A stretch of 22,252 nucleotides of DNA from sequence record DRR723986_4815; one strand, written 5' to 3'. The translations under genes were made by a program, and so were the position numbers. The stretch's first letter is position 1; each line of letters starts with the position of its first letter. A model generated the notes under the pieces. The model searched no databases and was not told the origin of the DNA. It saw only the letters and a list, made by a program, of their open reading frames with translations. This document shows positions 985-22,252 of the stretch, piece by piece.

Positions 985-1707
985 ATGAACGACGCAAGGC
1001 GAGAAAAGGGCAAGGCGACGCGGCAGTTGATACTCCAACGGGCAATCGAGCTGTTTCTTAGCGAAGGTTACTCCACAACCAGTATCGACCGTGTCGCCGA
1101 GGCTGCTGGGGTGACGAAGCCGACCGTCTACAGTCATTTCCAATCCAAGACGGGGTTATTCAAGGCCGCCGTCAATGCAAGTGCTGAGCAACGTGCTGGC
1201 AAACTGGGAGAACTGTTGCGAGTCACTGATGACGCCGCGCACGACTTGGAGCGATTCGGCGAGAAGTTTCTCGGGATCGTTTTGAGTCCGGAAGCAGACT
1301 CGTGGGACCGGATCGCAGCCGCCGAAGCTCGGACGCACCCCGAGGTTGGGCGGATGTTCTACGACGCTGGGCCGAGGCGGGTAAATGAAGCACTTGCTAA
1401 CTATATGAAGCAGCAAACTGAAGCAGGGTTGTTGTCCGTCGAATCACATCAGGAGGCTGCTGAGCTATTCATTGGGATGCTTCTGGGAATCGATCTGCTA
1501 AGAACCCGCATCGGTGCGCCGCCTCCCAACAAGTCGCAGATTCAACGGAAGTGCAAGACGGCGGTTGCAGCGTTTCTCGCGGCCTTTGGTCCGGCGGCTA
1601 GTTCGCCATCTCGATCCGCCCGTCTCGGTGCAGCAGGCAGTGAAGTAAACAGTGCAGCAGACAGCGCCAACTCGAAGAAGACCACAGACGAGGAGCACAA
1701 GCAATGA
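985..1707 (+). CDS. TetR/AcrR family transcriptional regulator
   Basis: N-terminal HTH ILQRAIELFLSEGYSTTSIDRVAEAAGVTKPTVYSHFQSKTGLF; C-terminal domain with AEARTHPEVGRMFYDAGP. Its stop overlaps the next start (ATGA, 1704-1707). Confidence 0.95.
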   Translation: MNDARREKGKATRQLILQRAIELFLSEGYSTTSIDRVAEAAGVTKPTVYSHFQSKTGLFKAAVNASAEQRAGKLGELLRVTDDAAHDLERFGEKFLGIVLSPEADSWDRIAAAEARTHPEVGRMFYDAGPRRVNEALANYMKQQTEAGLLSVESHQEAAELFIGMLLGIDLLRTRIGAPPPNKSQIQRKCKTAVAAFLAAFGPAASSPSRSARLGAAGSEVNSAADSANSKKTTDEEHKQ

Positions 1708-3011
1708 GCATGCGTTTGCAATTCCTGAGATCACGCCGCTTGCTCTGGTTGCCACCAGTCTTGGTCGGCGTGGGCGTTCTCGCTTTCTTCATCAGAGGTA
1801 AACGCGAGCTGCCAAGGAAAGAGATTCAAGAGGTCGCGGTACCAATTCGTGTGATCGAAATCAAGCCAAAGGACATTGTGCCGTCGGCAACGGGTTTCGG
1901 CTCGGCAAGCCCTTCTCGAAAGTGGAGTGCCGTAGCTGAGGTATCCGGAAGAGTTGTCGAAGTGAATCCCAGGTTGGAGTCGGGCAATGTCGTCCAGGCA
2001 GGTGAGCTGCTTTTTCGAATCGATCCGGATGACTACGCTTTGCAACTGAGTCAACGCGAAAGTGATCTTGCGGTTGCAAACGCTCAGTTGGCTGAAACCA
2101 TCGCCAGCGAAACGGCTGACCAGCGATCTCTCGAGATTGAAAAGAGCCTGTTGGCGGTCAGCCAGAAAGAGCTAGACCGCCAGCTTGGTTTGCGGGGGCA
2201 GCAGATTGTTTCGGACAGTGAGCTTGAGAACGCGAGAATGAACGTGCTAAAGCAGCAACAAGCGGTCCAACGCCTCAAGAATACTCTCAGTCTGTACGTA
2301 TCAAGGAAATCGTCAGCAGAGGCGCAGGTCAGGTTGGCCGAGAGTCGCGTCAAAGAAGCCCAACGCAACTTGGAGCGTACGCAGATTACGAGCCCCTACA
2401 CTGGGACGCTCGCGGGAGTTTCGGTCGAGTTGGGACAGGTCGTTGCACCGAACCAAAATCTCTTTGAATTGCACGATACAAGCACGGTTGAGGTGGAATC
2501 ACATTTTTCGATCTCGCAACTGCAGAGGTTGCTGCCCGACGGTAAGCACTACTCGGCCAATGACCAGCTCGCAAGCTGGCTACCGAAGCTGACGGCTGTA
2601 CTGACGACAGAAAGCGGTGGATCAAAGCAGGTTTTTCGAGGCCAGCCCATTCGCATCACCGAGTCTCTGGATACTCAGACTCGAACGCTGGGCGTTGTTG
2701 TGGCCGTGCAAAACTCATCGATGCAAGCTAACGCCGCGGATGTGCTGCGGGCAGGTACATTCTGCGAAGTAGAGTTGCGCTCTGAGAGTCGAGGTGGGCG
2801 GATTGCCGTGCCGCGATTGGCTCTCGATGGTGAGGCGGTCTATGAGGTGGACGAAGACAGTCGGTTGCATCGGCGACCCGTGTCGATCGAGAGTTTCATT
2901 GGTGACACGGCGGTGATTGCTTCTGGGTTGCAGGTTGGTCAGTGGATTGCCAGCCAGCCACCCGTGCCAGCAATCGAGGGAATGCTGGTTGCCCCCGAAG
3001 AGGCTCGATAG
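1704..3011 (+). CDS. RND efflux periplasmic adaptor (membrane fusion protein)
   Basis: N-terminal TM segment, lipoyl half-motifs (AEVSGRVVEV...GNVVQAGELLFRID and ITSPYTGTL...GQVV), long alpha-hairpin, DTQTRTL motif; directly upstream of an RND permease. Confidence 0.93.
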   Translation: MSMRLQFLRSRRLLWLPPVLVGVGVLAFFIRGKRELPRKEIQEVAVPIRVIEIKPKDIVPSATGFGSASPSRKWSAVAEVSGRVVEVNPRLESGNVVQAGELLFRIDPDDYALQLSQRESDLAVANAQLAETIASETADQRSLEIEKSLLAVSQKELDRQLGLRGQQIVSDSELENARMNVLKQQQAVQRLKNTLSLYVSRKSSAEAQVRLAESRVKEAQRNLERTQITSPYTGTLAGVSVELGQVVAPNQNLFELHDTSTVEVESHFSISQLQRLLPDGKHYSANDQLASWLPKLTAVLTTESGGSKQVFRGQPIRITESLDTQTRTLGVVVAVQNSSMQANAADVLRAGTFCEVELRSESRGGRIAVPRLALDGEAVYEVDEDSRLHRRPVSIESFIGDTAVIASGLQVGQWIASQPPVPAIEGMLVAPEEAR

Positions 3012-3044
3012 TCAATTTGCTGCTGGGTAGTCAATTTGCTGCTG
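3009..3044 (+). repeat. 17-bp tandem direct repeat TAGTCAATTTGCTGCTG (period 19)
   Basis: Exact copies at 3009-3025 and 3028-3044; the first copy begins with the TAG stop of the adaptor gene. Confidence 0.9.
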
Positions 3045-3101
3045 CAACAGCCCCAGAGCGATCGTTGCGTTTTGTCTTTCAACGTTCAATAGGAGCGTGC
3101 T

Positions 3102-6100
3102 GTGATTAGTTTCTTCGCTAAGCATCCGACCGCAGCAAATCTGCTGATGATCCTCATGCTCGCAGCAGGTCTTATGAGCGTTCGCTCACTACAGCGCGAG
3201 ACCTTCCCCGATGCCTTGCCGACAATCGTTCAAGTTCAGGTTGCTTTTCCTGGTGCAACCAGCAGTGAGGTTGAGGAGACCATTGTTCAGCGACTGGAGG
3301 ATGCACTCGACGGGGTCCAGTATCTGAAGGAACTCAAGAGCACAGCCGTTCAGTCCGTTGGTACGGTGACGCTAGAGATGGAGGATTCAGGTGACTACAA
3401 CGCTTTTCGCAACGAAATCGACAACGCAGTGGCGTCCATTGATGATTTCCCCGACGACTCCGAACCGCCCATAACGAGTCGACTGAACACGCGGCAGCCG
3501 GTCCTTGATGTTTTGGTTGTTGGCCCAATGACAAGCGTTAATCTGAAGGCTTACTGCGAAAGGCTGCGTGACAGGATGGTTGCGTTGCCCGACGTCAGCG
3601 AGGTCAACGTCGATGGCTTCTCGGATCACCTTCTGCGCGTCGAGCTATCTAGGGAAGCGATGCTGCGTTATGGCTTGAGCGCAACCGACGTCAGTACGGC
3701 GATTGCATCGCAGAGTCTCGATATGCCGGCTGGCAAGATTGATTCAGAACAATCCGTTTTGGTGCGAGTTCAAGAAAGCCGCAAGACTAGCAGGGCTTTG
3801 CGGGATCTAGTGGTGACCGGACGCCGCGGTGGAGCTGAGGTTCGACTCTCGGATATTGCCACGATCAAGGATGAGTTTGAGCTCGAGGAAGACAGGGTAT
3901 CCGTTGACGGCCAGCGAGCGGCAGTCCTGCGTGTTCGCAAAACTAAGCAAGAAGACACGATTCGCGTTGCAGATGCGGTCAAGCAAGTCGTCGAGGAAGA
4001 ACGTCTGCGACAACCACAGGTGCAGCTAAGCGTGATCAACGATCAGTCGTCGTTGGTGAGAGACCGCATATCCCTTTTGCTCAAGAACGGGTGGCAAGGC
4101 TGTCTCTTGGTGTTTGCGACCATGTGGCTATTCTTCAACGCACGACTGTCTTTCTGGGTAGTCGTCAGTCTGCCCGTTTCTTTCCTTGCCGCGTTTGCGT
4201 TTGTGCCTGCCACCGGGCTGACGATCAACATGCTGACCATGATCGGCCTGCTAATGGCCTTGGGGCTGTTGATGGACGACGGGATCGTCATTGCAGAGAA
4301 CATCGCGACGCGTCGTAGCCGGGGTGAGCCGGCTATGCAGGCAGCCGTCGAGGGAGTTCGCGAGGTTGGAAGTGGCGTCTTCAGTTCATTCCTGACAACA
4401 TGTAGCGTGCTGGGACCGCTCATTTTCTTAAACGGTGACATCGGGAAAGTGCTGAGGGTGTTGCCGATGATGCTGCTGCTTGTTCTGGCAACCAGTCTGG
4501 TCGAAGCGTTCTTGATCCTGCCTTCACACCTCGGGCATTCGCTCTCCGGTGATCCAAACAAACGTTCGCGGCTGAGGCTAGCTTGTGAAGCAGTCATTGA
4601 TCGTGGCCGGGACGCTTTGACGTACGTGGTAAGAATCGCAATCCGCCTACGTTACTTGACACTTGGCACCGTCGTGATGGTCTTCATGTGCACGATTGGC
4701 CTGATCGCAGGTGGCTTCGTTCGTTTTCAGGTCTTTCCGTCTCTTGAAGGTGACACCGTCGTGTCGCGTATCCTCTTGCCGCCTGGCACGCCACTTGAAC
4801 AAACACAAGAAGTGGTCGCTCGTGTCGAACAGGCTTTGCGGGAGACGAACGAGCACTTTCGCCCTCGGCAGCCCGATCAACAGGATTTAGTGAAGACAAC
4901 ATTCGTTCGCTATAACCAAAATACAGACGCCAACGAAGTAGGTAGCCATGTAGCTACCGTACAAGCTGACTTGCTTGGCACAGAACTGCGTGATGCATCG
5001 ATGGAAGAAGTCATCGGTTACTGGGAGAACGCAGTCGGGACGATTCCGAACGTTTTGAATCTAACTTTTGATGAGCCTTCAATTGGGCCCGCAGGAAGAG
5101 ATATTGAGCTCCTTCTGCAAGGGCTGCCGCTGGCGGAGTTAGATGAGGTAGCAGAGCAATTGAAAGGTTATTTCGCAACCTACGAGGGAATCTACAGTTT
5201 GACGGACGACCTCCGCAAAGGTCAGCTCGAGGTGCTGGTTTCCCTGCGAGCCGGCGCTGTGGGGCTGGGCATGACAGCCCAAGACCTGGGACGGCAACTA
5301 AGGGGCTCATTCCAAGGGCTGTTGAGTGATCAAATCCAAGTCGGTGATGAAGCCTACGATGTTGAAGTGAGATTCGAGGAAGCGGATCGCAATAGTATCA
5401 GTGACCTGGAGAACTATCGCGTGACGCTTCCCAGTGGCCTCGCTGTACCTCTGGGCGAGGTCGCGGTGCTTCAGCAGCGGCGCGGCTGGTCGCGCATTTC
5501 GAGAACAGATGGCAAACAGTCCGTGCTGGTCGTAGGCAACGTTGATTCGACAAAGTCAAACGCTGTTGCGGCGATCAATAATATGCGTCGAGAGTTGCTT
5601 CCAGAGCTCCGGCAAGAGTATCCTGGGCTCCAGGTCACGACGAAGGGTGCGAGCGAAACCGGTGCAGAGACGGGACGGTCCATGGGCACGGCCGCTTTGG
5701 TCGGATGTTTGGGTGTGTTCGTTATTCTGTCGTTTCAATTCCGGAGCTATGTCGAGCCCATTATTGTGATGGCGGCCATCCCGTTCGCATTTGTCGGAGT
5801 CGTTTGGGGGCACTTAGCCTATGGCATTAGTCTCAGCCTCCCGAGCATGATGGGCTATGCCTCGCTTGCAGGTATCGTGGTCAATGATTCGATTCTGTTG
5901 ATCTTGTTTTTGAAGTCGCAGGCGGACGAATCCGCGGACGTGGAACAGGCTGCCGCCGAAGCCAGTCGGCTGCGTTTCCGCGCGGTCATGATTACCTCGC
6001 TGACGACAATCGCAGGCCTGATGCCACTGCTGGCGGAGCAGAGTCTGCAAGCGCAAGTGTTGATTCCAATCGCCATCAGCATCTGTTTCGGTTTGATGGC

Positions 6101-6209
6101 GTCGACGGTGCTCGTGCTGGTCGTCCTTCCACCGATGTACGTACTGCTGAGCGATTTCGGTTTGACCAGCTTCCACCCTAAGGCGTCCGGGCAAAAAACT
6201 GCCGCCTAG
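3102..6209 (+). CDS. RND efflux transporter permease (AcrB/AcrD/AcrF family)
   Basis: 1035 aa, GTG start after AGGAG RBS. N-terminus MISFFAKHPTAANLLM...ETFP; TM4 GLLMDDGIVIAENI; C-terminal RFRAVMITSLTTIAGLMPL; two large periplasmic loops. Confidence 0.96.
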   Translation: MISFFAKHPTAANLLMILMLAAGLMSVRSLQRETFPDALPTIVQVQVAFPGATSSEVEETIVQRLEDALDGVQYLKELKSTAVQSVGTVTLEMEDSGDYNAFRNEIDNAVASIDDFPDDSEPPITSRLNTRQPVLDVLVVGPMTSVNLKAYCERLRDRMVALPDVSEVNVDGFSDHLLRVELSREAMLRYGLSATDVSTAIASQSLDMPAGKIDSEQSVLVRVQESRKTSRALRDLVVTGRRGGAEVRLSDIATIKDEFELEEDRVSVDGQRAAVLRVRKTKQEDTIRVADAVKQVVEEERLRQPQVQLSVINDQSSLVRDRISLLLKNGWQGCLLVFATMWLFFNARLSFWVVVSLPVSFLAAFAFVPATGLTINMLTMIGLLMALGLLMDDGIVIAENIATRRSRGEPAMQAAVEGVREVGSGVFSSFLTTCSVLGPLIFLNGDIGKVLRVLPMMLLLVLATSLVEAFLILPSHLGHSLSGDPNKRSRLRLACEAVIDRGRDALTYVVRIAIRLRYLTLGTVVMVFMCTIGLIAGGFVRFQVFPSLEGDTVVSRILLPPGTPLEQTQEVVARVEQALRETNEHFRPRQPDQQDLVKTTFVRYNQNTDANEVGSHVATVQADLLGTELRDASMEEVIGYWENAVGTIPNVLNLTFDEPSIGPAGRDIELLLQGLPLAELDEVAEQLKGYFATYEGIYSLTDDLRKGQLEVLVSLRAGAVGLGMTAQDLGRQLRGSFQGLLSDQIQVGDEAYDVEVRFEEADRNSISDLENYRVTLPSGLAVPLGEVAVLQQRRGWSRISRTDGKQSVLVVGNVDSTKSNAVAAINNMRRELLPELRQEYPGLQVTTKGASETGAETGRSMGTAALVGCLGVFVILSFQFRSYVEPIIVMAAIPFAFVGVVWGHLAYGISLSLPSMMGYASLAGIVVNDSILLILFLKSQADESADVEQAAAEASRLRFRAVMITSLTTIAGLMPLLAEQSLQAQVLIPIAISICFGLMASTVLVLVVLPPMYVLLSDFGLTSFHPKASGQKTAA

Positions 6210-15776: not shown

Positions 15777-16919
15777 CTATACGATTTTGTCGACGGGCTC
15801 GGGATGTCCAAACGCGTATCCCTGAGCGGTTAGGAAGCCTAGTTCTTTGCATACTTCAGCTTCCTCTGGTCGTTCGACTCCCTCGGCCAGAGCGTTGATG
15901 CCGAGGTCGAGGGCCATTTGCAGCAACGACTTAATCATCTTCTGGCGGCTCTCGGTCGCTTTATCGATGCCGCGAACCAACGAAATGTCGAACTTGAGGA
16001 AGTCCGGTGGAGCGGCGACGAGTTCGGAAAGTCGGGCTTGCCCTGCACCGAAATCGTCGTAGGCCAAGAGGATCTGCAGGTCCGTTAGGCTAGACTTCAA
16101 TCGCTGCATTTCACTGGGTTCAGTGATAGCAGCCTCGTGCACCTCGAGCACAATGGGACGCTCCGGAGCGAGGTCGCGCAGCGTTGTGAGAGATTCTATT
16201 AGACCTTCTTGCCGTACTTCCAACGGATGCGTGTTCACAAACATCAGATTGCTTGACGGGATCTGAGCAGCTTGACGGACGCCTTCCCAGCGTAGCATTC
16301 GGCTGAGCTGCACTTCCATATTTAGCCGTGAAGCGGCGCTGAACATCGCGCGAGGCGATTCTAAGCCAAAGAGGCGGCTACGGGCCAAAACCTCATAGCC
16401 CAGCAGCTCCGAATTCTGCAGGTCGACGACAGGTTGATAGTTTGGACAAACGAGGCGATCAACCATCAAGCGGTCAAATTGCATGAGAGCGTAGGCGGAA
16501 TCGCAAACGTCTTCCGCCATCGTCGCGCAAGTTTTTACCAACGGCTCGCAGTGCACCCGATAGACATCGTCGGCAAACTGAACGAGATCGGTCTCCTTGA
16601 GCTGGACCGGTTGGCTGATACGGACGCCGTTTACAAAGGTGCCGTTGGTGCTCTCTAAATCGCGGATCCAAAGAGCATCGCGATGGACACGGAGTTCGGC
16701 GTGGACACCTGAGATCGTCTTTCGGTTGATCTGCAGCGCGCAACCGGCTTTGCGTCCAACCGTAAACGGCATGGACGCCGCCAGTTCGACTTCGGATTGG
16801 TCGGCGCACGCGATCAGCAGCCAGTTTAGCGATTCTGCCTTAGCGGGCTGCTGTTCGTCTATCTCATTGGACAAAGGTGATTGCATTGGATATGGCGTTC
16901 CCCGCGTCGGCGGAGACAC
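15777..16919 (-). CDS. FHA domain + EAL domain c-di-GMP phosphodiesterase
   Basis: FHA: FTVGR...ISGVHAEL...IRDLESTNGTFVNG. EAL: YQPVV, YEVLAR, FVN, LEVHE, DDFGAG, LKFD, AEGVE, QGYAFGHP. Start is GTG 16919 (GAGGA upstream) or ATG 16886. Confidence 0.92.
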   Translation of the reverse strand: MSPPTRGTPYPMQSPLSNEIDEQQPAKAESLNWLLIACADQSEVELAASMPFTVGRKAGCALQINRKTISGVHAELRVHRDALWIRDLESTNGTFVNGVRISQPVQLKETDLVQFADDVYRVHCEPLVKTCATMAEDVCDSAYALMQFDRLMVDRLVCPNYQPVVDLQNSELLGYEVLARSRLFGLESPRAMFSAASRLNMEVQLSRMLRWEGVRQAAQIPSSNLMFVNTHPLEVRQEGLIESLTTLRDLAPERPIVLEVHEAAITEPSEMQRLKSSLTDLQILLAYDDFGAGQARLSELVAAPPDFLKFDISLVRGIDKATESRQKMIKSLLQMALDLGINALAEGVERPEEAEVCKELGFLTAQGYAFGHPEPVDKIV

Positions 16920-17119
16920 GCTTCCTCATCTGTTTCGAGTTCATGAGCTACTGCCCAGCTCGGGTGCACTTTGACGCATTCGAAGTCTCCGTCCACCTGC
17001 GCTGCCACGCAGGGTAAGACATCTTTGCGACTTATCAAACTCATTCAGATGCGTTGATTGGGAAGTTAATTTCCGGCACACAACGCATCGCAGGAAGTCT
17101 AGGTCACGTTTCAGGCTCC

Positions 17120-17143
17120 GGCGAACAATTGCGCAAGTTCGCC
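17120..17143. promoter_or_regulatory. Imperfect palindrome in the divergent promoter region
   Basis: GGCGAAC-AA-TTGCGCAA-GTTCGCC: 7-bp arms around a self-complementary TTGCGCAA, roughly midway between the divergent starts. Confidence 0.35.
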
Positions 17144-17374
17144 AAATTGGTTCCTTTGGTGGTCGGCTGAGGTCAAAGGGGTAGTCAGCAGATCGGATAA
17201 CCGGAACAGGCGGCGCAATCCTGGCAATCGCGACTGTCTTCACGGCTAGCCGTTGTCGCGGTGGTTTCGACGCAGCTCATTTTCCCCTGTAGCGTTTTCG
17301 AATCCTAAGTTTTGTTGCGAGTTTCTCTAATCTTAGAAGCACTTTTCCCGACGCCACGCGACCAAGAGCAGCCT

Positions 17375-18889
17375 ATGACTGGTCTACTGCCGAATTCATC
17401 CGCCAACGTACAGACCTCGGACGTACCCGCGTTCTTGGGGGAAGATCAGTACTGGCCTGATGAACCACGAAGCATTGACGACACCGGATTGAGTCCTACT
17501 CTCGTCGATTCGATCATTTGTCAGATCTTGAGCGCACGAGGAAACTTGCCTGGGCGGTCATTGGCTGATGCGGTTGGCCTACCATTCGGAATCGTCGAAA
17601 TCCGCTTGAGTGATTTGCGAAGCCGACAGATCCTTACCCACACTCGTAGTGCGCCGCTAAACGATTTTTACTACGGTCTAACTGAAGCAGGCCACAATCG
17701 AACGCTTCAGCTTCAGAAGTCAATGATCTACACCGGGCCTGCTCCGGTTCCACTAGCAGACTATCTTGTCAGCGTCGAAGCTCAAGCGAGTCAGTACGAT
17801 CCGATCGAGCGATCCGACTTGGTGGATGCTCTCAACGGCATTTCCTACGATCCGGCTTGGCTTGATTTTCTCGGCCCCGCAGTGAACTCGACCGGCGGCA
17901 TCTTTCTGTACGGAGCTCCTGGTAACGGGAAAACCACTCTAGCGAAGTGCCTAACGGCCTTGAAGGGCAAGCACATCTGGATTCCTCATGCTGTTATCGA
18001 CGACGGCAACATTATCAAGGTCTTCGACGCTGCTTATCATACTCCCGCATCCGAGGATGCTGGCGACAGTCTGGTGGATTCAAGTAACGTTGATCGACGA
18101 TGGATCCGCGTCGAACGCCCAACCGTAATCGTTGGTGGAGAGCTTACGCTCGACAATTTAGAGATTCGGCATGACGCGCGAAGCAATACCTGCGAAGCAC
18201 CCCTGCAAGTCAAAAGCAACTGCGGCAGCCTGCTCGTCGATGACTTTGGGCGTCAGCGAGTTGCACCGGAAGACCTGCTGAATCGATGGATTATTCCACT
18301 GGAAAATCGGCTCGACTACCTGACACTCCCAACAGGTAAAAAGATCAGCGTGCCCTTTGAGCAGACGGTGATATTCTCGACAAACCTCCTACCGCAAGAC
18401 CTTGTGGATGAGGCGTTCTTGCGGCGAGTTCCATTCAAGATTGAAATTGCCGATCCGTCGCCTCAGGAGTTCATGGTCATCTTCCAGCGTGCTTGTTCGC
18501 AGATGGGATTTCCTTGGCGGCCTGACGTCGTCAAGCAATTGATTGCTGGGTTCTTCCTCGGTAGGAAACGCCCACTTCGAAGGTGCTATGCACGGGACCT
18601 ACTCAAGCAGGTCAAAGCGTACTGCGTTTATCAAGGCGAACCCTGCGATTTACGCATTGAGTATCTGCAACATGCCTGCAGAAACTACTTTGGCACACTC
18701 GAGATTGAAACAGCGACAGCGCCGATGCAGTCTGCTACGCCGGTTCAACCCCCTGCTCCGCCAAAACCTCAACCAGTTCCTCAGGTTGCTCCAGCGGCGT
18801 CACCCGCCCAGAACGCCGCCGCAGTTGTGCCACCAGGGTCCGGGAATGCTGATCAGCCACCCCCATCCGGAACAGTCGTACTCCAATAA
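17375..18889 (+). CDS. AAA+ ATPase with N-terminal winged-helix-like region and Pro/Ala/Gln-rich tail
   Basis: From ATG 17375 it is 504 aa: Walker A GAPGNGKT (17912-17935), Walker B LLVDDFG, LLNRWIIPLE, pre-sensor-1 hairpin YLTLPTGKKISVPF, sensor-1 IFSTN, Arg finger AFLRRVP. The N-terminal GRSLADAVGLPFGIVEIRLSDL...YGLTEAG resembles a wHTH. Confidence 0.88.
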   Translation: MTGLLPNSSANVQTSDVPAFLGEDQYWPDEPRSIDDTGLSPTLVDSIICQILSARGNLPGRSLADAVGLPFGIVEIRLSDLRSRQILTHTRSAPLNDFYYGLTEAGHNRTLQLQKSMIYTGPAPVPLADYLVSVEAQASQYDPIERSDLVDALNGISYDPAWLDFLGPAVNSTGGIFLYGAPGNGKTTLAKCLTALKGKHIWIPHAVIDDGNIIKVFDAAYHTPASEDAGDSLVDSSNVDRRWIRVERPTVIVGGELTLDNLEIRHDARSNTCEAPLQVKSNCGSLLVDDFGRQRVAPEDLLNRWIIPLENRLDYLTLPTGKKISVPFEQTVIFSTNLLPQDLVDEAFLRRVPFKIEIADPSPQEFMVIFQRACSQMGFPWRPDVVKQLIAGFFLGRKRPLRRCYARDLLKQVKAYCVYQGEPCDLRIEYLQHACRNYFGTLEIETATAPMQSATPVQPPAPPKPQPVPQVAPAASPAQNAAAVVPPGSGNADQPPPSGTVVLQ

Positions 18890-18961
18890 TCCAGTTTGCC
18901 GCTCAGCGACTCACAGAGTTGTGACCTGAGCTGGCAAGAATGCAGATGCCGAGAATAGAAG

Positions 18962-21900
18962 ATGTTAGAACCAGGCCACGAACCTATCACTGGATATCGC
19001 CTCCGCAGCCGTTTGGGAGCTGGTGGCTACGGGGAAGTTTGGTTGTGCGATGCGCCTGGAGGTTTGCAGAAAGCGATTAAATTCATCTTTGGAGCGGTCA
19101 CGGGCCCGCAGGCAACCAAAGAGCTGCGCAGCTTGGAGAGGATTTCTAAGGTCAATCATCCGTTCCTGCTTTCCATCGAGCGTGTTGAAGTCGTTGGTGA
19201 CCAACTGCTCATCGTTACCGAACTGGCCGAACATAGTTTGGAAGACCAATTGGCTGCGTGTCGCAAAGCCGGTAGGAGTGGACTGCCCAGACGCGACCTT
19301 CTGCAATATATGCGCGACGCTGCAGAAGCACTCGACTTCTTGGCTACGGAGCACTCTCTCCAGCATTTGGATGTTAAGCCAGCGAACCTGCTTGTTCTTT
19401 CCAAACGGATTAAGGTTGCGGACTTCGGGCTTTTGAAGGATCTGCAAGCGGTTCAGCAGTCTTGCATTGGTGGGATGACGCCAGCGTACACGGCTCCGGA
19501 AGTATTTGACGGCTGCCCTGACGTCAGGTCCGATCAATACTCGTTAGCCATCACATACATCGAACTTCTCACGGGCGGCCTGCCCTTTTCGGGATCAACA
19601 CTGGCCGCTCTTGCCAAACAGCACTTGAACGAAGCACCCAACCTGGACATGCTCCCACCGGGCGATCGTGACATCGTTGCTCGTGCGATGTTGAAGCATC
19701 CATTGGATCGCTTTGCGAATTGTCGTCAGTTCATTGATCAACTGATGAACGTTAAAGCGACATTGATGCCCGTTTCGTTGGATCCGCAGACCAATAGTGA
19801 AACTTCGAGCGAAGCGACAACAACGGCAGTCACGGCGGATAGCAACGATTTGTTCCAGCCTGTTGTCGCTGTTGGTCGTGAGTTTCAAATTGCCGATGAA
19901 GTAGCTGTGCCGACGCTTACGATCGGAGTTGGCGGTGTTGGCGGCAGTGCACTGTCCGACCTTAGGCTTCGCCAAATCGACGCTTCAAGGTCGCAGTTCT
20001 TGTATATCGATACCGATCTAGACGACATCAAACGCTATACATCAAATCTTGACGAAGATGATCCGCGGCGAATCCCAGAAGATGACGTGCTGCATCTGCG
20101 GCTTGGCACGCCAGACGAATATCGTAGGCTTGCACCGGAAAGATTTAAGAGCATTTCGCGGCGCTGGCTTTACAACGTCCCTCGCAGTGGACGCACCGAA
20201 GGAATTCGACCGCTAGCGCTGTTGTCACTTTTGCACTTTCAAGACTCCGTTGCGAGACGCATTCAGGAGAGTCTTGTCCGCCTTCAGTCGGTGGCAAACG
20301 GGCAGACTCTTCGCGTGCAGTTGTTATCGTCTCTGCACGGCGCGACCGGTGGTGGAACGTTGGCAGCTCTAGCGTTGCTCATTCAGGACGTCGCTGAAGC
20401 AAGTGGCGTTACCGTTGAGGTTGAAGCCTTGGTGACGGCCGCTGAATCCTCGCACAGCGGGCCCGCAAAAATGGCTCCCGCAGCGGCACTATCCACACTG
20501 GCTGAGTTGAGCACCTACTTCGATTCCCAGACGGTGCATCCGCCGTTGTTCAGCGTGCTCCCACAGTCGGCCACTCGTCCCGCGCGAGCTAGTTCACCGC
20601 TAAGTCGAGTTGTTGCGGCACACGGGGGCTGTCTGGGTGACGCGACCGACCTGCATCGCGCAGCGGAAAAGCTCGCCGATTTGGCTGAGTTTCGATTGCA
20701 GTATCCAGCATGGAATAGCGATAGCGATCCCAACCAGTGGTTCACAACCGCCGAACGCATCAAGCTTGAATTGCCGAGTCAGCACTCGTCGACCAGCCTA
20801 GCAGTGCTGTGCGTTCTCCGCGGTCTCGCTCAGTTCCGCGACTCGCTTACAGGCAAATCGCAGCCGTCACCTGAGGCATCCGAGCAGATCGTACAAGCGC
20901 TCAAGGGTCGTCTCTATCCAACGCTGGCTCTAGGCGGTGACGATGCTGAATCCGCCGACACGCTAAGGCGGCTGATCGAAGCAAACAATGTGCCCGATGG
21001 CGTCCAGGAGCAGTCTGCACTGATCGGTGAAGCCGTCGAGAAGTCGCATGCGATTGTCTATGAAGCTCTGTTGAGCAATCGTGCAACCTGGTCCCAGGTG
21101 CAGGAAACGCTCGATCAAGTCGTGCAAGAACTTTCTATTGCATCAGTATCACCGGACAGCACTTTGGAGTCTCTTCGCGCCTTTGAGGAATACGCTGCAG
21201 ATGATGCCCTAACCGCCGTCAGGGAGAAAGCTTCGCAACGACTTGCTGCGCTCTCTGAAGCTGTCGAAGAACACAGCCAGGTTTTCCGCTCCACTGGGAG
21301 TGAGTATGCCAGCCGAGTTGGTGAGTGTGGCAAGCAGATTGCGAGCAAGATCCCAGCCAAGCAAGGCCGGGCGCTCTCGGCTTCGGTAGCGGAAAGCCGC
21401 CCGCTGAGTGAAATGGTGACGATCGTTGCCGAGCATTTGCAAAGCGTGCTGACGCAGTCGTTGCCTATTTCGGCGGCAGCCGGAGCAATTGAAACGACCC
21501 AGCGGACCGTGCAGCCGCTGCGAGAATTCAATGTCTCCGGGCTTCTGAGTGAAGCTGTTGTGCAGATCAAAAAGCTGAGTGGGAGATTTGAGATAACGCT
21601 GAATGACTCCGACGCACAGGCGACCAGTCACGCAGCCAAGATCGTTGAAAAGCTTGATTTAGCCATTCCACCGCTGGCACGCTGCGGCGGTAAAGTAACT
21701 CGGCAGGTTGCCGGACGCAGTCGAGAGATTGTGCGGCTAAAGCAACTGATCGAAAACGGCGGTGGCAAGCACGTTAGCAAGAGCACCAGCTTCGTGCATT
21801 GGGAGCATCACCTGTGCAAGAATTCAAACTGGATTCTTACTCAAGCAACAGAGCTACCTCTTGAGTTACTCGTACGGAACCTGTGGCGGCCAGCGGCGGA

Positions 21901-22099
21901 TACGCTGAAGTTGGCCGAGAAACTGCGATCGCGCGTGGACATACGCTGGCCAAGTATCGACGAGATGCTCACGCGGCAACCAGACCGTCAAGACTCAAGT
22001 GAATCTGCTGCTCAGTCGACGGACAACTCAGCCGCAATAAGCCCGTTTCCGCCAGTAGCCGTGGAGCTAAGTCAAACCGTTGTACCGGCAAGCCAATAG
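18962..22099 (+). CDS. Ser/Thr protein kinase fused to a tubulin/FtsZ-like (Tubulin_2-type) domain
   Basis: Kinase (aa ~1-262): LGAGGYGEVW, KAIK, HLDVKPANLL, DFG, YTAPE, SDQYSL. Tubulin-like part: TIGVGGVGG (T1, 19919-19945), YIDTD (T2, ~20003-20017), RTEGIRPLA (T3 region), SLHGATGGG (T4, 20330-20356). A long helical C-terminus follows. Confidence 0.85.
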   Translation: MLEPGHEPITGYRLRSRLGAGGYGEVWLCDAPGGLQKAIKFIFGAVTGPQATKELRSLERISKVNHPFLLSIERVEVVGDQLLIVTELAEHSLEDQLAACRKAGRSGLPRRDLLQYMRDAAEALDFLATEHSLQHLDVKPANLLVLSKRIKVADFGLLKDLQAVQQSCIGGMTPAYTAPEVFDGCPDVRSDQYSLAITYIELLTGGLPFSGSTLAALAKQHLNEAPNLDMLPPGDRDIVARAMLKHPLDRFANCRQFIDQLMNVKATLMPVSLDPQTNSETSSEATTTAVTADSNDLFQPVVAVGREFQIADEVAVPTLTIGVGGVGGSALSDLRLRQIDASRSQFLYIDTDLDDIKRYTSNLDEDDPRRIPEDDVLHLRLGTPDEYRRLAPERFKSISRRWLYNVPRSGRTEGIRPLALLSLLHFQDSVARRIQESLVRLQSVANGQTLRVQLLSSLHGATGGGTLAALALLIQDVAEASGVTVEVEALVTAAESSHSGPAKMAPAAALSTLAELSTYFDSQTVHPPLFSVLPQSATRPARASSPLSRVVAAHGGCLGDATDLHRAAEKLADLAEFRLQYPAWNSDSDPNQWFTTAERIKLELPSQHSSTSLAVLCVLRGLAQFRDSLTGKSQPSPEASEQIVQALKGRLYPTLALGGDDAESADTLRRLIEANNVPDGVQEQSALIGEAVEKSHAIVYEALLSNRATWSQVQETLDQVVQELSIASVSPDSTLESLRAFEEYAADDALTAVREKASQRLAALSEAVEEHSQVFRSTGSEYASRVGECGKQIASKIPAKQGRALSASVAESRPLSEMVTIVAEHLQSVLTQSLPISAAAGAIETTQRTVQPLREFNVSGLLSEAVVQIKKLSGRFEITLNDSDAQATSHAAKIVEKLDLAIPPLARCGGKVTRQVAGRSREIVRLKQLIENGGGKHVSKSTSFVHWEHHLCKNSNWILTQATELPLELLVRNLWRPAADTLKLAEKLRSRVDIRWPSIDEMLTRQPDRQDSSESAAQSTDNSAAISPFPPVAVELSQTVVPASQ

Positions 22100-22145
22100 G
22101 TTTTGAGCGCTTGGCTGCATCGGCTTCATAGTAGTAGGCGCATAT

Positions 22146-22250
22146 AGTAGTAGGCACACTCCGTGTGTCGTAACGCCCTCCGCATCCCGTAACGCCTGAA
22201 GAGCCGAGCTTTGAGGGCGTGCAGACGGCACACGGAGTGTGCCTACTACT
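22146..22250. repeat. REP doublet / REPIN-like inverted repeat (GTAG type)
   Basis: Arms AGTAGTAGGCACACTCCGTGTGTCGT (22146-22171) and ACGGCACACGGAGTGTGCCTACTACT (22225-22250) are 25/26 complementary. Each is GTAG plus an internal hairpin GGCACAC-TCC-GTGTG(C/T)C. Inner inverted pair ACGCCCTC (22173-22180) / GAGGGCGT (22213-22220). Confidence 0.85.
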
Positions 22251-22252
22251 TT

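Follow-up and report, generated by a model that had tools for sequence, protein, structure and literature searches.

A protein kinase fused to a tubulin-like FtsZl1 domain in a Pirellulaceae-like planctomycete and its conserved three-gene module

Fusions of a protein kinase to the FtsZ-like domain FtsZl1 were described in Planctomycetes by Makarova and Koonin (PMC2875224) and also appear in papers from 2023 and 2024 (PMC9871819 and PMC11032199), so this architecture has been in print since 2010. A first-pass annotation of the gene discussed here had stated that such fusions were noted bioinformatically, and that is correct. The 2010 description gives the signature of FtsZl1 as a T1 loop and a T4 GTP-binding signature of the GGGTG(S/T)G type (PMC2875224). 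Our literature searches found no experimental study of FtsZl1. For the GAP1-N2 biological-conflict systems, too, proteins are described in which a tubulin domain is joined to a coiled-coil or alpha-helical tail (Kaur et al. 2020, PMC7159879). These systems are built around TRAFAC GTPases, include vWA and FNIII proteins, and are reported there from Firmicutes and Actinobacteria.

We analyzed a window of 22,252 nucleotides (the whole stretch of DNA from record DRR723986_4815), whose source is a Pirellulaceae-like planctomycete. Within the FtsZl1 (Pfam Tubulin_2) family there is a kinase-fused clade, typical of Planctomycetia/Pirellulales, and our gene is an ordinary orthologue that belongs to it. 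Like the clade described in 2010, it has an N-terminal kinase, an FtsZ-like GTP-binding domain in which inserts separate the T1 and T4 loops, and a long, presumed helical region (the clade has a coiled-coil and alpha-helical C-terminus), and it comes from the same phylum (PMC2875224). Nothing essential differs, but the T4 loop of our protein is GATGGG instead of GGTGSG. The features of the locus are listed in Table 1.

Table 1. Features of the kinase-FtsZl1 gene and its neighbors (positions in the window)
Feature	Position	Strand	Basis or details
FHA + EAL gene, 380 aa	15777..16919	-	Pfam EAL 143.9 bits, FHA 71 bits; motifs
P-loop AAA-like ATPase, upstream partner	17312..18889	+	525 aa from TTG, or 504 aa from ATG at 17375
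Whole ORF, 1045 aa	18962..22099	+	Kinase, linker, FtsZl1 (Tubulin_2) domain, presumed helical region, conserved block at the C-terminus
Hanks-type protein kinase domain, aa 12-264	18995..19753	+	Pfam Pkinase (PF00069) 96.7 bits, cut-off 31.7; motifs
Thr/Ser/Ala-rich linker, ~50 aa (about aa 265-314)	19754..19903	+	Composition; low pLDDT at the modeled end
Tubulin/FtsZ-fold GTPase-like domain, aa ~315-602	19904..20767	+	PF13809; AF2 model; Foldseek and VIA matches; conservation
Region of low conservation, rich in A/S/L/E, aa ~603-902; presumed helical or coiled-coil	20768..21667	+	Model to aa 660; composition; weak matches
Conserved C-terminal block, aa 903-996	21668..21949	+	P.L...GG..R ... 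LA.RL..R.D..W

The reading frame lies exactly where the first-pass annotation had placed it, with an ATG at 18962 and a TAG that ends at 22099. The Ser/Thr kinase that it had claimed has the full set of catalytic motifs (GAGGYG at 19, AIK at 38-40 with K40, HLDVKPAN at 135, DFG at 154, and APE at 178), and we predict that this Hanks-type kinase is catalytically intact. The catalytic loop, HLDVKPAN, is of the non-RD type. The same annotation saw no transmembrane segment, and we also found no segment of transmembrane-grade hydrophobicity in the 1045 amino acids: the best 19-residue Kyte-Doolittle mean is only 1.52, and it lies within the tubulin-like domain. The protein is thus predicted to be cytoplasmic. 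The linker that follows the kinase is 15% threonine and 9% serine. Serine and threonine are enriched in the linkers of 110 of 124 family members, though modestly (18% vs. 13%), and enrichment of this degree is typical of any disordered linker.

The tubulin-like domain is recognized by the Tubulin_2/FtsZl1 profile (PF13809; gathering cut-off of 27 bits), which matches aa 319-522 with 44.7 bits (E = 1.5e-11) if the whole protein is searched and with 48.1 bits if the tubulin-like segment is searched alone. The Tubulin profile (PF00091) stays below its cut-off of 33 bits, with 16.7 bits for the whole protein and 20.4 bits for the segment, and a Pfam scan of the protein gave no match to FtsZ_C or Tubulin_C. 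The four tubulin-superfamily motifs named in the first-pass annotation are all present at the residues it gave: IGVGGVG at 321-327 (the T1 loop), IDTD at 349-352, TEGIRPLA at 412-419, and SLHGATGGG at 457-465. They fall in columns that are conserved when 74 family members are aligned, the consensus being LFIGxGGxG, IDTD, SRRWLYNIPRSxxTEGxRP, and SxxGGTGSG. (In our protein, the family signature SRRWLYNVPRS..TEGIRP corresponds to aa 399-417 and the T4 signature HGATGGG to aa 459-465.) At the sequence level, the resemblance to the tubulin loops is far beyond chance.

Structure prediction gives the same picture. The AF2 model of aa 305-660 has a pLDDT of 89.1 and a pTM of 0.85. In a Foldseek search with this model, 111 chains had E ≤ 1e-3, and all 44 of the matches listed were CetZ, FtsZ, PhuZ, or TubZ (best E = 1e-6). 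With VIA-align, all 50 of the matches listed belong to the tubulin superfamily; FtsZ, CetZ, TubZ, and tubulin align over 200-235 residues at about 3 A with Z of 18-20, and the scores include Z = 20.2 for CetZ (3zid_B; 222 residues, 3.0 A) and Z = 19.7 for FtsZ (2vxy). Since the Tubulin_2 profile matches and the predicted fold is that of tubulin and FtsZ, the domain does not look like a non-tubulin Rossmann fold, which was the outcome that would have spoken against the first-pass annotation. The model also shows S6 and an H7-like helix, two elements that had escaped alignment in the sequence analysis of 2010 (PMC2875224).

The domain shares the GTPase fold and the T1 and T4 nucleotide loops with FtsZ, CetZ, TubZ, and tubulin, but it differs from FtsZ and tubulin in several ways besides the sub-threshold match to PF00091. 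Past residue 276 of the model, DSSP assigns only helices and one 3-residue strand, so the C-terminal beta-domain (S7-S10) is absent from the model. The 74-member alignment has no conserved D/E column after the H7-like helix, where the acidic T7 residue would be. The only near-invariant residue at the end of that helix is R578 (67 of 74 sequences), and the nearest acidic column (aa 573, D/E in 61%) lies inside the helix. There are large family-specific inserts between T1 and T4, including SRRWLYNIPRS, and the kinase and a tail of ~440 aa are fused to the domain. When we compared a profile of the kinase-less family members to PDB sequences, no FtsZ or tubulin chains were found at E ≤ 1. We conclude from the model that aa ~315-602 form a predicted tubulin/FtsZ-fold domain that has kept the T1 and T4 loops and has lost the acidic T7 residue and the C-terminal beta-domain.

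These losses raise the question of whether the domain still uses GTP. It might be a pseudo-GTPase, that is, a tubulin fold that no longer binds or hydrolyzes GTP and whose only role is to dimerize or localize a non-RD kinase that is constitutively active. The fast divergence of the domain, its weak match to PF00091, and the lack of a conserved T7 catalytic residue would all fit. So would the T4 loop, which is GATGGG/GATGSG in our protein and its nearest relative, with alanine at the second position (our protein and P0002 both have alanine for the second T4 glycine); nucleotide binding could be altered because of this change. However, T1 (GxGGxG) and T4 (GGTGSG) are conserved across the 74 diverse members, G460 is invariant, T462 is found in 90% or more of the sequences, and TEGxRP, at the expected position of T3, is near-invariant. 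This conservation points to selection on the nucleotide pocket, and we consider a pseudo-GTPase rather unlikely. A homodimer prediction for aa 305-660 with GTP, which was made without an alignment, gave scores of 0.30, 0.32, and 0.29, against a mark of 0.32, which speaks neither for nor against a dimer.

Beyond the tubulin-like domain, the first-pass annotation had expected about 450 aa of helical sequence. This holds for aa ~610 to 660, where the AF2 model is helical up to its end (model residues 306-350). Past aa 660, what we have is a composition rich in A, L, E, and S and weak matches to helical bundles. (The weak matches, to helical bundles and apolipoproteins, come from the comparison of the profile of kinase-less family members to PDB sequences.) In the ESM Atlas, the best scores for the tail (aa 640-1045) were 0.80-0.81, which is under the meaningful level; the top clusters carry Tubulin_2, which is no more than a lead. 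The C-terminal block stands out within the tail, with columns that are conserved at 60-95% across 73 relatives.

The family has 676 representatives at E ≤ 1e-3, and the kinase is present in 132 of the 153 family proteins that we examined, including ours. According to reviews, no planctomycete has kept ftsZ (PMC12673574 and PMC10632474), and the first-pass annotation had suggested an FtsZ-less lineage. Our searches bear this out. Canonical FtsZ (PF00091 above its cut-off) was found in just 1 of the 151 genomes sampled from the bacterial family and in none of the genomes of four close relatives, as compared to 13 of 14 control genomes. Each of the four close relatives has one match to Tubulin_2, so FtsZl1 is the sole tubulin-superfamily member that we found in them.

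Given this, could FtsZl1 have replaced FtsZ? A polymerizing tubulin-like domain might organize how cells bud or divide now that FtsZ is gone from the lineage, with the kinase regulating this cytoskeleton. Besides the absence of FtsZ, the fold of the GTPase domain is as expected for such a role, and the gene is present in 98 of the 151 family genomes (many of which are incomplete MAGs) and is single-copy in 97 of those 98. But the conserved acidic T7 residue and the C-terminal domain, which serve filament contacts and GTPase activation in FtsZ (PMC2875224), are both absent. Within the module described below, conservation is lowest in the tubulin-like part, with a median identity of 31% (58% for the kinase), which is not what we would expect for a core division protein. 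Across the phylum, Tubulin_2 was matched in only some genomes (at least 12 of 301), even though all planctomycetes are reported to be without FtsZ (PMC12673574), and elsewhere FtsZl1 coexists with FtsZ (PMC2875224). Finally, the main text of an essential-gene study in P. limnophila mentions neither a tubulin nor a kinase. Overall, we think it very unlikely that FtsZl1 substitutes for FtsZ.

The kinase-FtsZl1 gene, a gene for an AAA-like ATPase, and a gene for an FHA-EAL protein form a tightly conserved three-gene module. The ATPase gene is directly upstream and on the same strand in all 67 informative loci. In our window, the gap between the two genes is just 72 nt and the scanned region has no terminator-like site on the + strand, so they are probably co-transcribed. 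The linkage is not universal, as in some family genomes (G317, G332, and G338) the best match to the ATPase is far from the FtsZl1 gene, and the ATPase family has 2-5 paralogues per genome. The ATPase has a Walker A motif (GAPGNGKT), a Walker B-like motif (LLVDDFG), FSTN, and EAFLRR. It does not pass the cut-off of any curated AAA family in Pfam: its match to PF00004 scores 17.7 bits (cut-off 21.2) and covers the Walker A region only. A profile of the ATPase matched p97, NSF, Msp1, and spastin in PDB over only ~28-39 residues, and its AF2 model is poor (pLDDT of 52.7). The FHA-EAL gene, which encodes a c-di-GMP phosphodiesterase, is present and divergently oriented in 54 of the 55 loci with enough flanking sequence. 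Its EAL active-site motifs (EVL at 176, DDFG at 288, and EGVE at 346) and the phosphothreonine-binding residues of its FHA domain (GR at 55-56, S70..H73, and N92-G93) are present. Every other flanking gene appears in fewer than 8 of the 80 loci. The main text of the 2010 study does not mention this neighborhood of an AAA-like ATPase and FHA-EAL (PMC2875224).

The tubulin-like domain and the tail change much faster than the kinase and the ATPase, and such a pattern could be explained by a role in biological conflict. As in the GAP1-N2 systems (PMC7159879), a tubulin-superfamily domain is followed by a region that is coiled-coil or alpha-helical (presumed so in our protein) and there are NTPase partners; here, the fast-evolving tubulin-like and helical parts would sense invasion and trigger the kinase and the ATPase. 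Two kinase models from PADLOC-DB 2.0 (mad6 and PD-T4-6) do match our protein, but these matches stay within aa 7-326, in the kinase region at the N-terminus; the ATPase is matched at the Walker A region alone and FHA-EAL has no match. Unlike the GAP1-N2 systems, the only conserved neighbors are the AAA-like ATPase and FHA-EAL, and across the 80 loci the neighborhood has no conserved gene for a GTPase, vWA, FNIII, or effector protein. (A Pfam scan found no vWA, TRAFAC GTPase, FNIII, or OmpA-like neighbors in our window.) Within one bacterial family, the gene is widespread, syntenic, and usually present in a single copy; the 2010 tree indicates vertical inheritance in Planctomycetes (PMC2875224), and the flanks in our window consist of housekeeping genes and have no marks of mobile elements. 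We consider a conflict or defense role quite unlikely and rejected it as the main explanation.

Hanks kinases and FHA-domain proteins can form signaling pairs, and mycobacterial PknB with its FHA proteins is an example of such a pair. Our locus has a kinase with a threonine-rich linker and a neighboring gene whose FHA domain has intact phosphothreonine-binding residues. The differences from those pairs are that this kinase is predicted to be cytoplasmic, that a tubulin-like domain takes the place of the transmembrane/PASTA sensor, and that the FHA domain is fused to EAL.

We lean, by a small amount, towards the view that kinase-FtsZl1 is a nucleotide-gated scaffold or signaling kinase that acts on the turnover of c-di-GMP, rather than a replacement for FtsZ; the mechanism is inferred. 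The first-pass annotation had suggested that the tubulin fold might regulate the kinase or act as its scaffold. In our proposal, GTP bound by the tubulin-like domain would control how the protein associates with itself, using that domain together with the helical tail. The resulting clusters might then promote trans-autophosphorylation by the kinase, plausibly on threonines in the linker. The phosphothreonines could recruit the FHA domain of the neighboring EAL phosphodiesterase, which would lower c-di-GMP locally, and the AAA-like ATPase may remodel the kinase-FtsZl1 assembly or take it apart. A more specific proposal is that the trio forms one machine, in which the polymer state of a GTP-gated, non-canonical assembly of the tubulin superfamily is written as phosphothreonine marks that FHA-EAL reads and converts to c-di-GMP turnover. 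This is speculative and seems unlikely to be right as stated.

The fusion itself is by now textbook-level bioinformatics. To this we add the wide and usually single-copy presence of the gene in the family, the three-gene module, a kinase whose conservation far exceeds that of the tubulin-like part, and a confident AF2 model that shows which elements of tubulin were retained and which were lost. The conserved linkage to FHA-EAL and an AAA-like ATPase gives a concrete and testable hypothesis about signaling. If the three proteins do work as one machine, then a cytoskeleton-like element would be coupled directly to the turnover of c-di-GMP.

The open frame that the first-pass annotation described as a kinase joined to a tubulin-like domain runs from ATG to TAG, and the four tubulin-type motifs that it named match the claimed residues exactly. 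Pfam assigns aa 12-264 to a protein kinase domain (96.7 bits). Its catalytic motifs are complete (GAGGYG, AIK, HLDVKPAN, DFG, and APE), and the HLDVKPAN motif makes this a non-RD kinase. The annotation suggested a check against Tubulin_2 (PF13809), and aa 319-522 score 44.7 bits against this model (curated cut-off 27); the excised tubulin-like segment alone reaches 48.1 bits. The canonical Tubulin/FtsZ model (PF00091) remained sub-threshold (16.7 and 20.4 bits vs. a cut-off of 33), and the only NCBIfam matches were partial kinase matches, all far under cut-off. As had been suggested, we found no hydrophobic stretch of transmembrane grade. The original observation is confirmed, and its reading as a fusion of a kinase and a tubulin-like (FtsZl1) domain is supported.

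Modeling aa 305-660 with AlphaFold2 (alignment of the query and 73 relatives) gave a mean pLDDT of 89.1 and a pTM of 0.85. The annotation proposed comparing such a model with FtsZ, TubZ, and CetZ. When we compared it to PDB with Foldseek, the best match had E = 1e-6, 111 chains were at E ≤ 1e-3, and all 44 rows listed were from the tubulin superfamily (CetZ, FtsZ, PhuZ, or TubZ). A second structural aligner gave Z = 20.2 to CetZ (3zid_B; 222 residues, 3.0 Å) and Z = 19.7 to B. subtilis FtsZ; its 50 rows contain only FtsZ, CetZ, or tubulins. The match spans S1 to an H7-like helix (model 11-298 corresponds to FtsZ 11-229). Past this helix, the model contains only helices and a single three-residue strand, so the C-terminal beta-domain that is present in FtsZ and tubulin is absent. 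Makarova and Koonin (2010; PMC2875224) state that T6-H7 and the C-terminal domain could not be identified.

The T1 loop, IDTD, and the T4 signature are conserved among the 74 aligned sequences, as is a family-specific block (SRRWLYNIPRS..TEG.RP). At T4, the window's protein and its nearest relative have GATGGG/GATGSG, vs. GGTGSG in the family. No acidic residue is conserved in this alignment at the expected position of the T7 loop, and the sole near-invariant residue nearby is R578 (67/74 sequences). The domain might be a pseudo-GTPase that acts as a scaffold, but we rank this below the GTP-binding scaffold that we propose below. A profile of kinase-less family members did not reach any FtsZ chain among PDB sequences, so the link to the superfamily is based on the Pfam model and on the fold.

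With the closest locus (L001) left out of the related loci, the kinase has a median identity of 57.7% to the window's protein, against only 31.1% for the tubulin-like part. The tail could be detected in 25 of the remaining 79 loci, with a median of 28.4%. This gradient is unusually steep for a fused protein. Within L002-L080, the kinase ranges over 52-63% identity and the tubulin-like domain over 27-40%; for the most part, the tail could not be detected. A conserved block closes the otherwise variable tail (see table). The C-terminal peptide of FtsZ is a docking element, and by analogy this block could be one as well.

The kinase-FtsZl1 gene lies 72 nt downstream of an ATPase gene on the same strand, and we found no terminator-like site on the + strand in the region scanned (16800-22252). 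In all 67 loci with over 1600 nt of upstream sequence, the ATPase precedes the kinase-FtsZl1 gene on the same strand, and a divergent FHA-EAL gene is present in 54 of the 55 loci with over 3400 nt. Of the loci with ample upstream sequence, L046 (5851-6810) alone lacks it; the ATPase match at L046 is also shorter than at other loci. No further ORF from the window, L001, or another related locus (L058) recurs in at least 8 of the 80 loci, shadow frames aside. The ATPase and FHA-EAL have median identities to the window of 59.0% and 52.6%, respectively (L001 excluded). Judging by its sequence, the FHA-EAL protein retains the phosphothreonine-binding residues of FHA and the active-site motifs of EAL. 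The ATPase resembles classical AAA proteins (p97, NSF, Msp1, spastin) around Walker A only, its scores stay below every curated cut-off in Pfam and NCBIfam, and its AlphaFold2 model was too poor for use. It belongs to a paralogous family that is present in 134 of 151 Pirellulaceae genomes, most often with 2-5 copies each, and in some of these genomes the best match is not beside the FtsZl1 gene. Many matches to this ATPase family in the searched genomes (G001-G452) contain a single in-frame stop, which probably arises where the match overruns the gene's end into a Pro/Ala-rich tail.

Features of the window
Feature	Coordinates	Strand	Details
Efflux operon	985-6209	+	TetR-family regulator, HlyD-type membrane-fusion protein, AcrB-type RND transporter
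ORF, 199 aa	6397-6996	+	no Pfam family at E ≤ 1e-3
ORF, 427 aa	14100-15383	-	no Pfam family at E ≤ 1e-3
FHA-EAL protein, 380 aa	15777-16919	-	upstream of and divergent from the ATPase
P-loop ATPase, 525 aa	17312-18889	+	GAPGNGKT, LLVDDFG, FSTN, EAFLRR motifs
Kinase-FtsZl1 ORF, 1045 aa	18962-22099	+	ATG start, TAG stop
Conserved C-terminal block	21668-21949	+	P.L...GG..R ... LA.RL..R.D..W; column conservation up to 95%

The window's other genes are ordinary (the TetR/RND efflux operon, EamA, thioredoxin-TPR, FabH, TsaE, an aminotransferase, an epimerase, and a GT2 glycosyltransferase). Among the related loci, the 427-aa ORF has a homologue in L001 alone.

An exhaustive HMMER search of representative proteins with aa 300-1045 found 676 at E ≤ 1e-3, 388 at 1e-10, and 21 at 1e-30. 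With the window protein's own kinase as the probe, a kinase domain was detectable in 132 of 153 family proteins (counting the query) and not in the other 21. Scanning one genome per prokaryotic species for SRRW[LIV]YN[IV]P yielded 494 matches, and 491 of them were confirmed. The best 80 loci all belong to Planctomycetota, predominantly to Pirellulaceae or Pirellula, and the closest one comes from a Pirellulaceae MAG (62% identity in the tubulin-like part).

According to two reviews (PMC12673574, PMC10632474), ftsZ was lost from all planctomycetes. PF00091 had no match in four relatives' genomes (including two complete chromosomes and one chromosome-level MAG; control 13/14), and each of the four has exactly one Tubulin_2 match, within an open frame 1063-1151 aa long. 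In the Pirellulaceae family sample, 98 of the 151 genomes matched the tubulin-like domain at E ≤ 1e-8, with a single match in 97 of the 98, and PF00091 was over its cut-off in one of the 151 (G354). That match (C30:935-1561, - strand, 220.8 bits) lies in a 482-aa open frame near a contig end, and reflects either contamination of the MAG or a genuine exception to the loss of FtsZ. No FtsZl1-domain match from G354 is among those listed for the family sample. In an evenly drawn sample of the phylum, at least 12 of 301 genomes have Tubulin_2 at E ≤ 1e-5; this is a minimum, since the Pfam model gives the kinase-FtsZl1 clade weak scores. The protein might substitute for FtsZ, which we consider a less favored explanation than scaffold signaling.

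The kinase-FtsZl1 architecture is already in print, so its novelty is low. Makarova and Koonin report an extra N-terminal kinase domain in four such proteins from Planctomycetes, with vertical inheritance there; Santana-Molina et al. (2023; PMC9871819) state the N-terminal kinase on Planctomycetes Tubulin_2 proteins again; and a 2024 survey of planctomycete kinases (PMC11032199) gives the tubulin-like domain as the commonest partner of purely cytoplasmic kinases. No experimental work on FtsZl1 turned up in our literature searches. Kaur et al. (2020; PMC7159879) assign tubulin-plus-coiled-coil proteins of Firmicutes and Actinobacteria to GTPase-centred conflict systems; a similar role for kinase-FtsZl1 also ranks below scaffold signaling. 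The available text of the cited papers does not mention the ATPase/FHA-EAL context, which their supplements might.

The analysis establishes the domain identities, the fold, the conservation of the motifs, the synteny, and the distribution. From these, we infer that kinase-FtsZl1 acts in scaffold signaling. A GTP-binding tubulin-fold module and the helical tail would control self-association, which would favor trans-autophosphorylation of the Ser/Thr-rich linker. (This enrichment is found in 110 of 124 family members, but it is modest.) Phosphothreonines in the linker would dock the FHA-EAL phosphodiesterase, and the AAA-like ATPase may remodel the assembly. Three points are new here: the three genes form a tight module, the model reveals the anatomy of the tubulin-like domain, and the parts of the protein differ in how well they are conserved. 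Together, they make a long-neglected protein directly testable.
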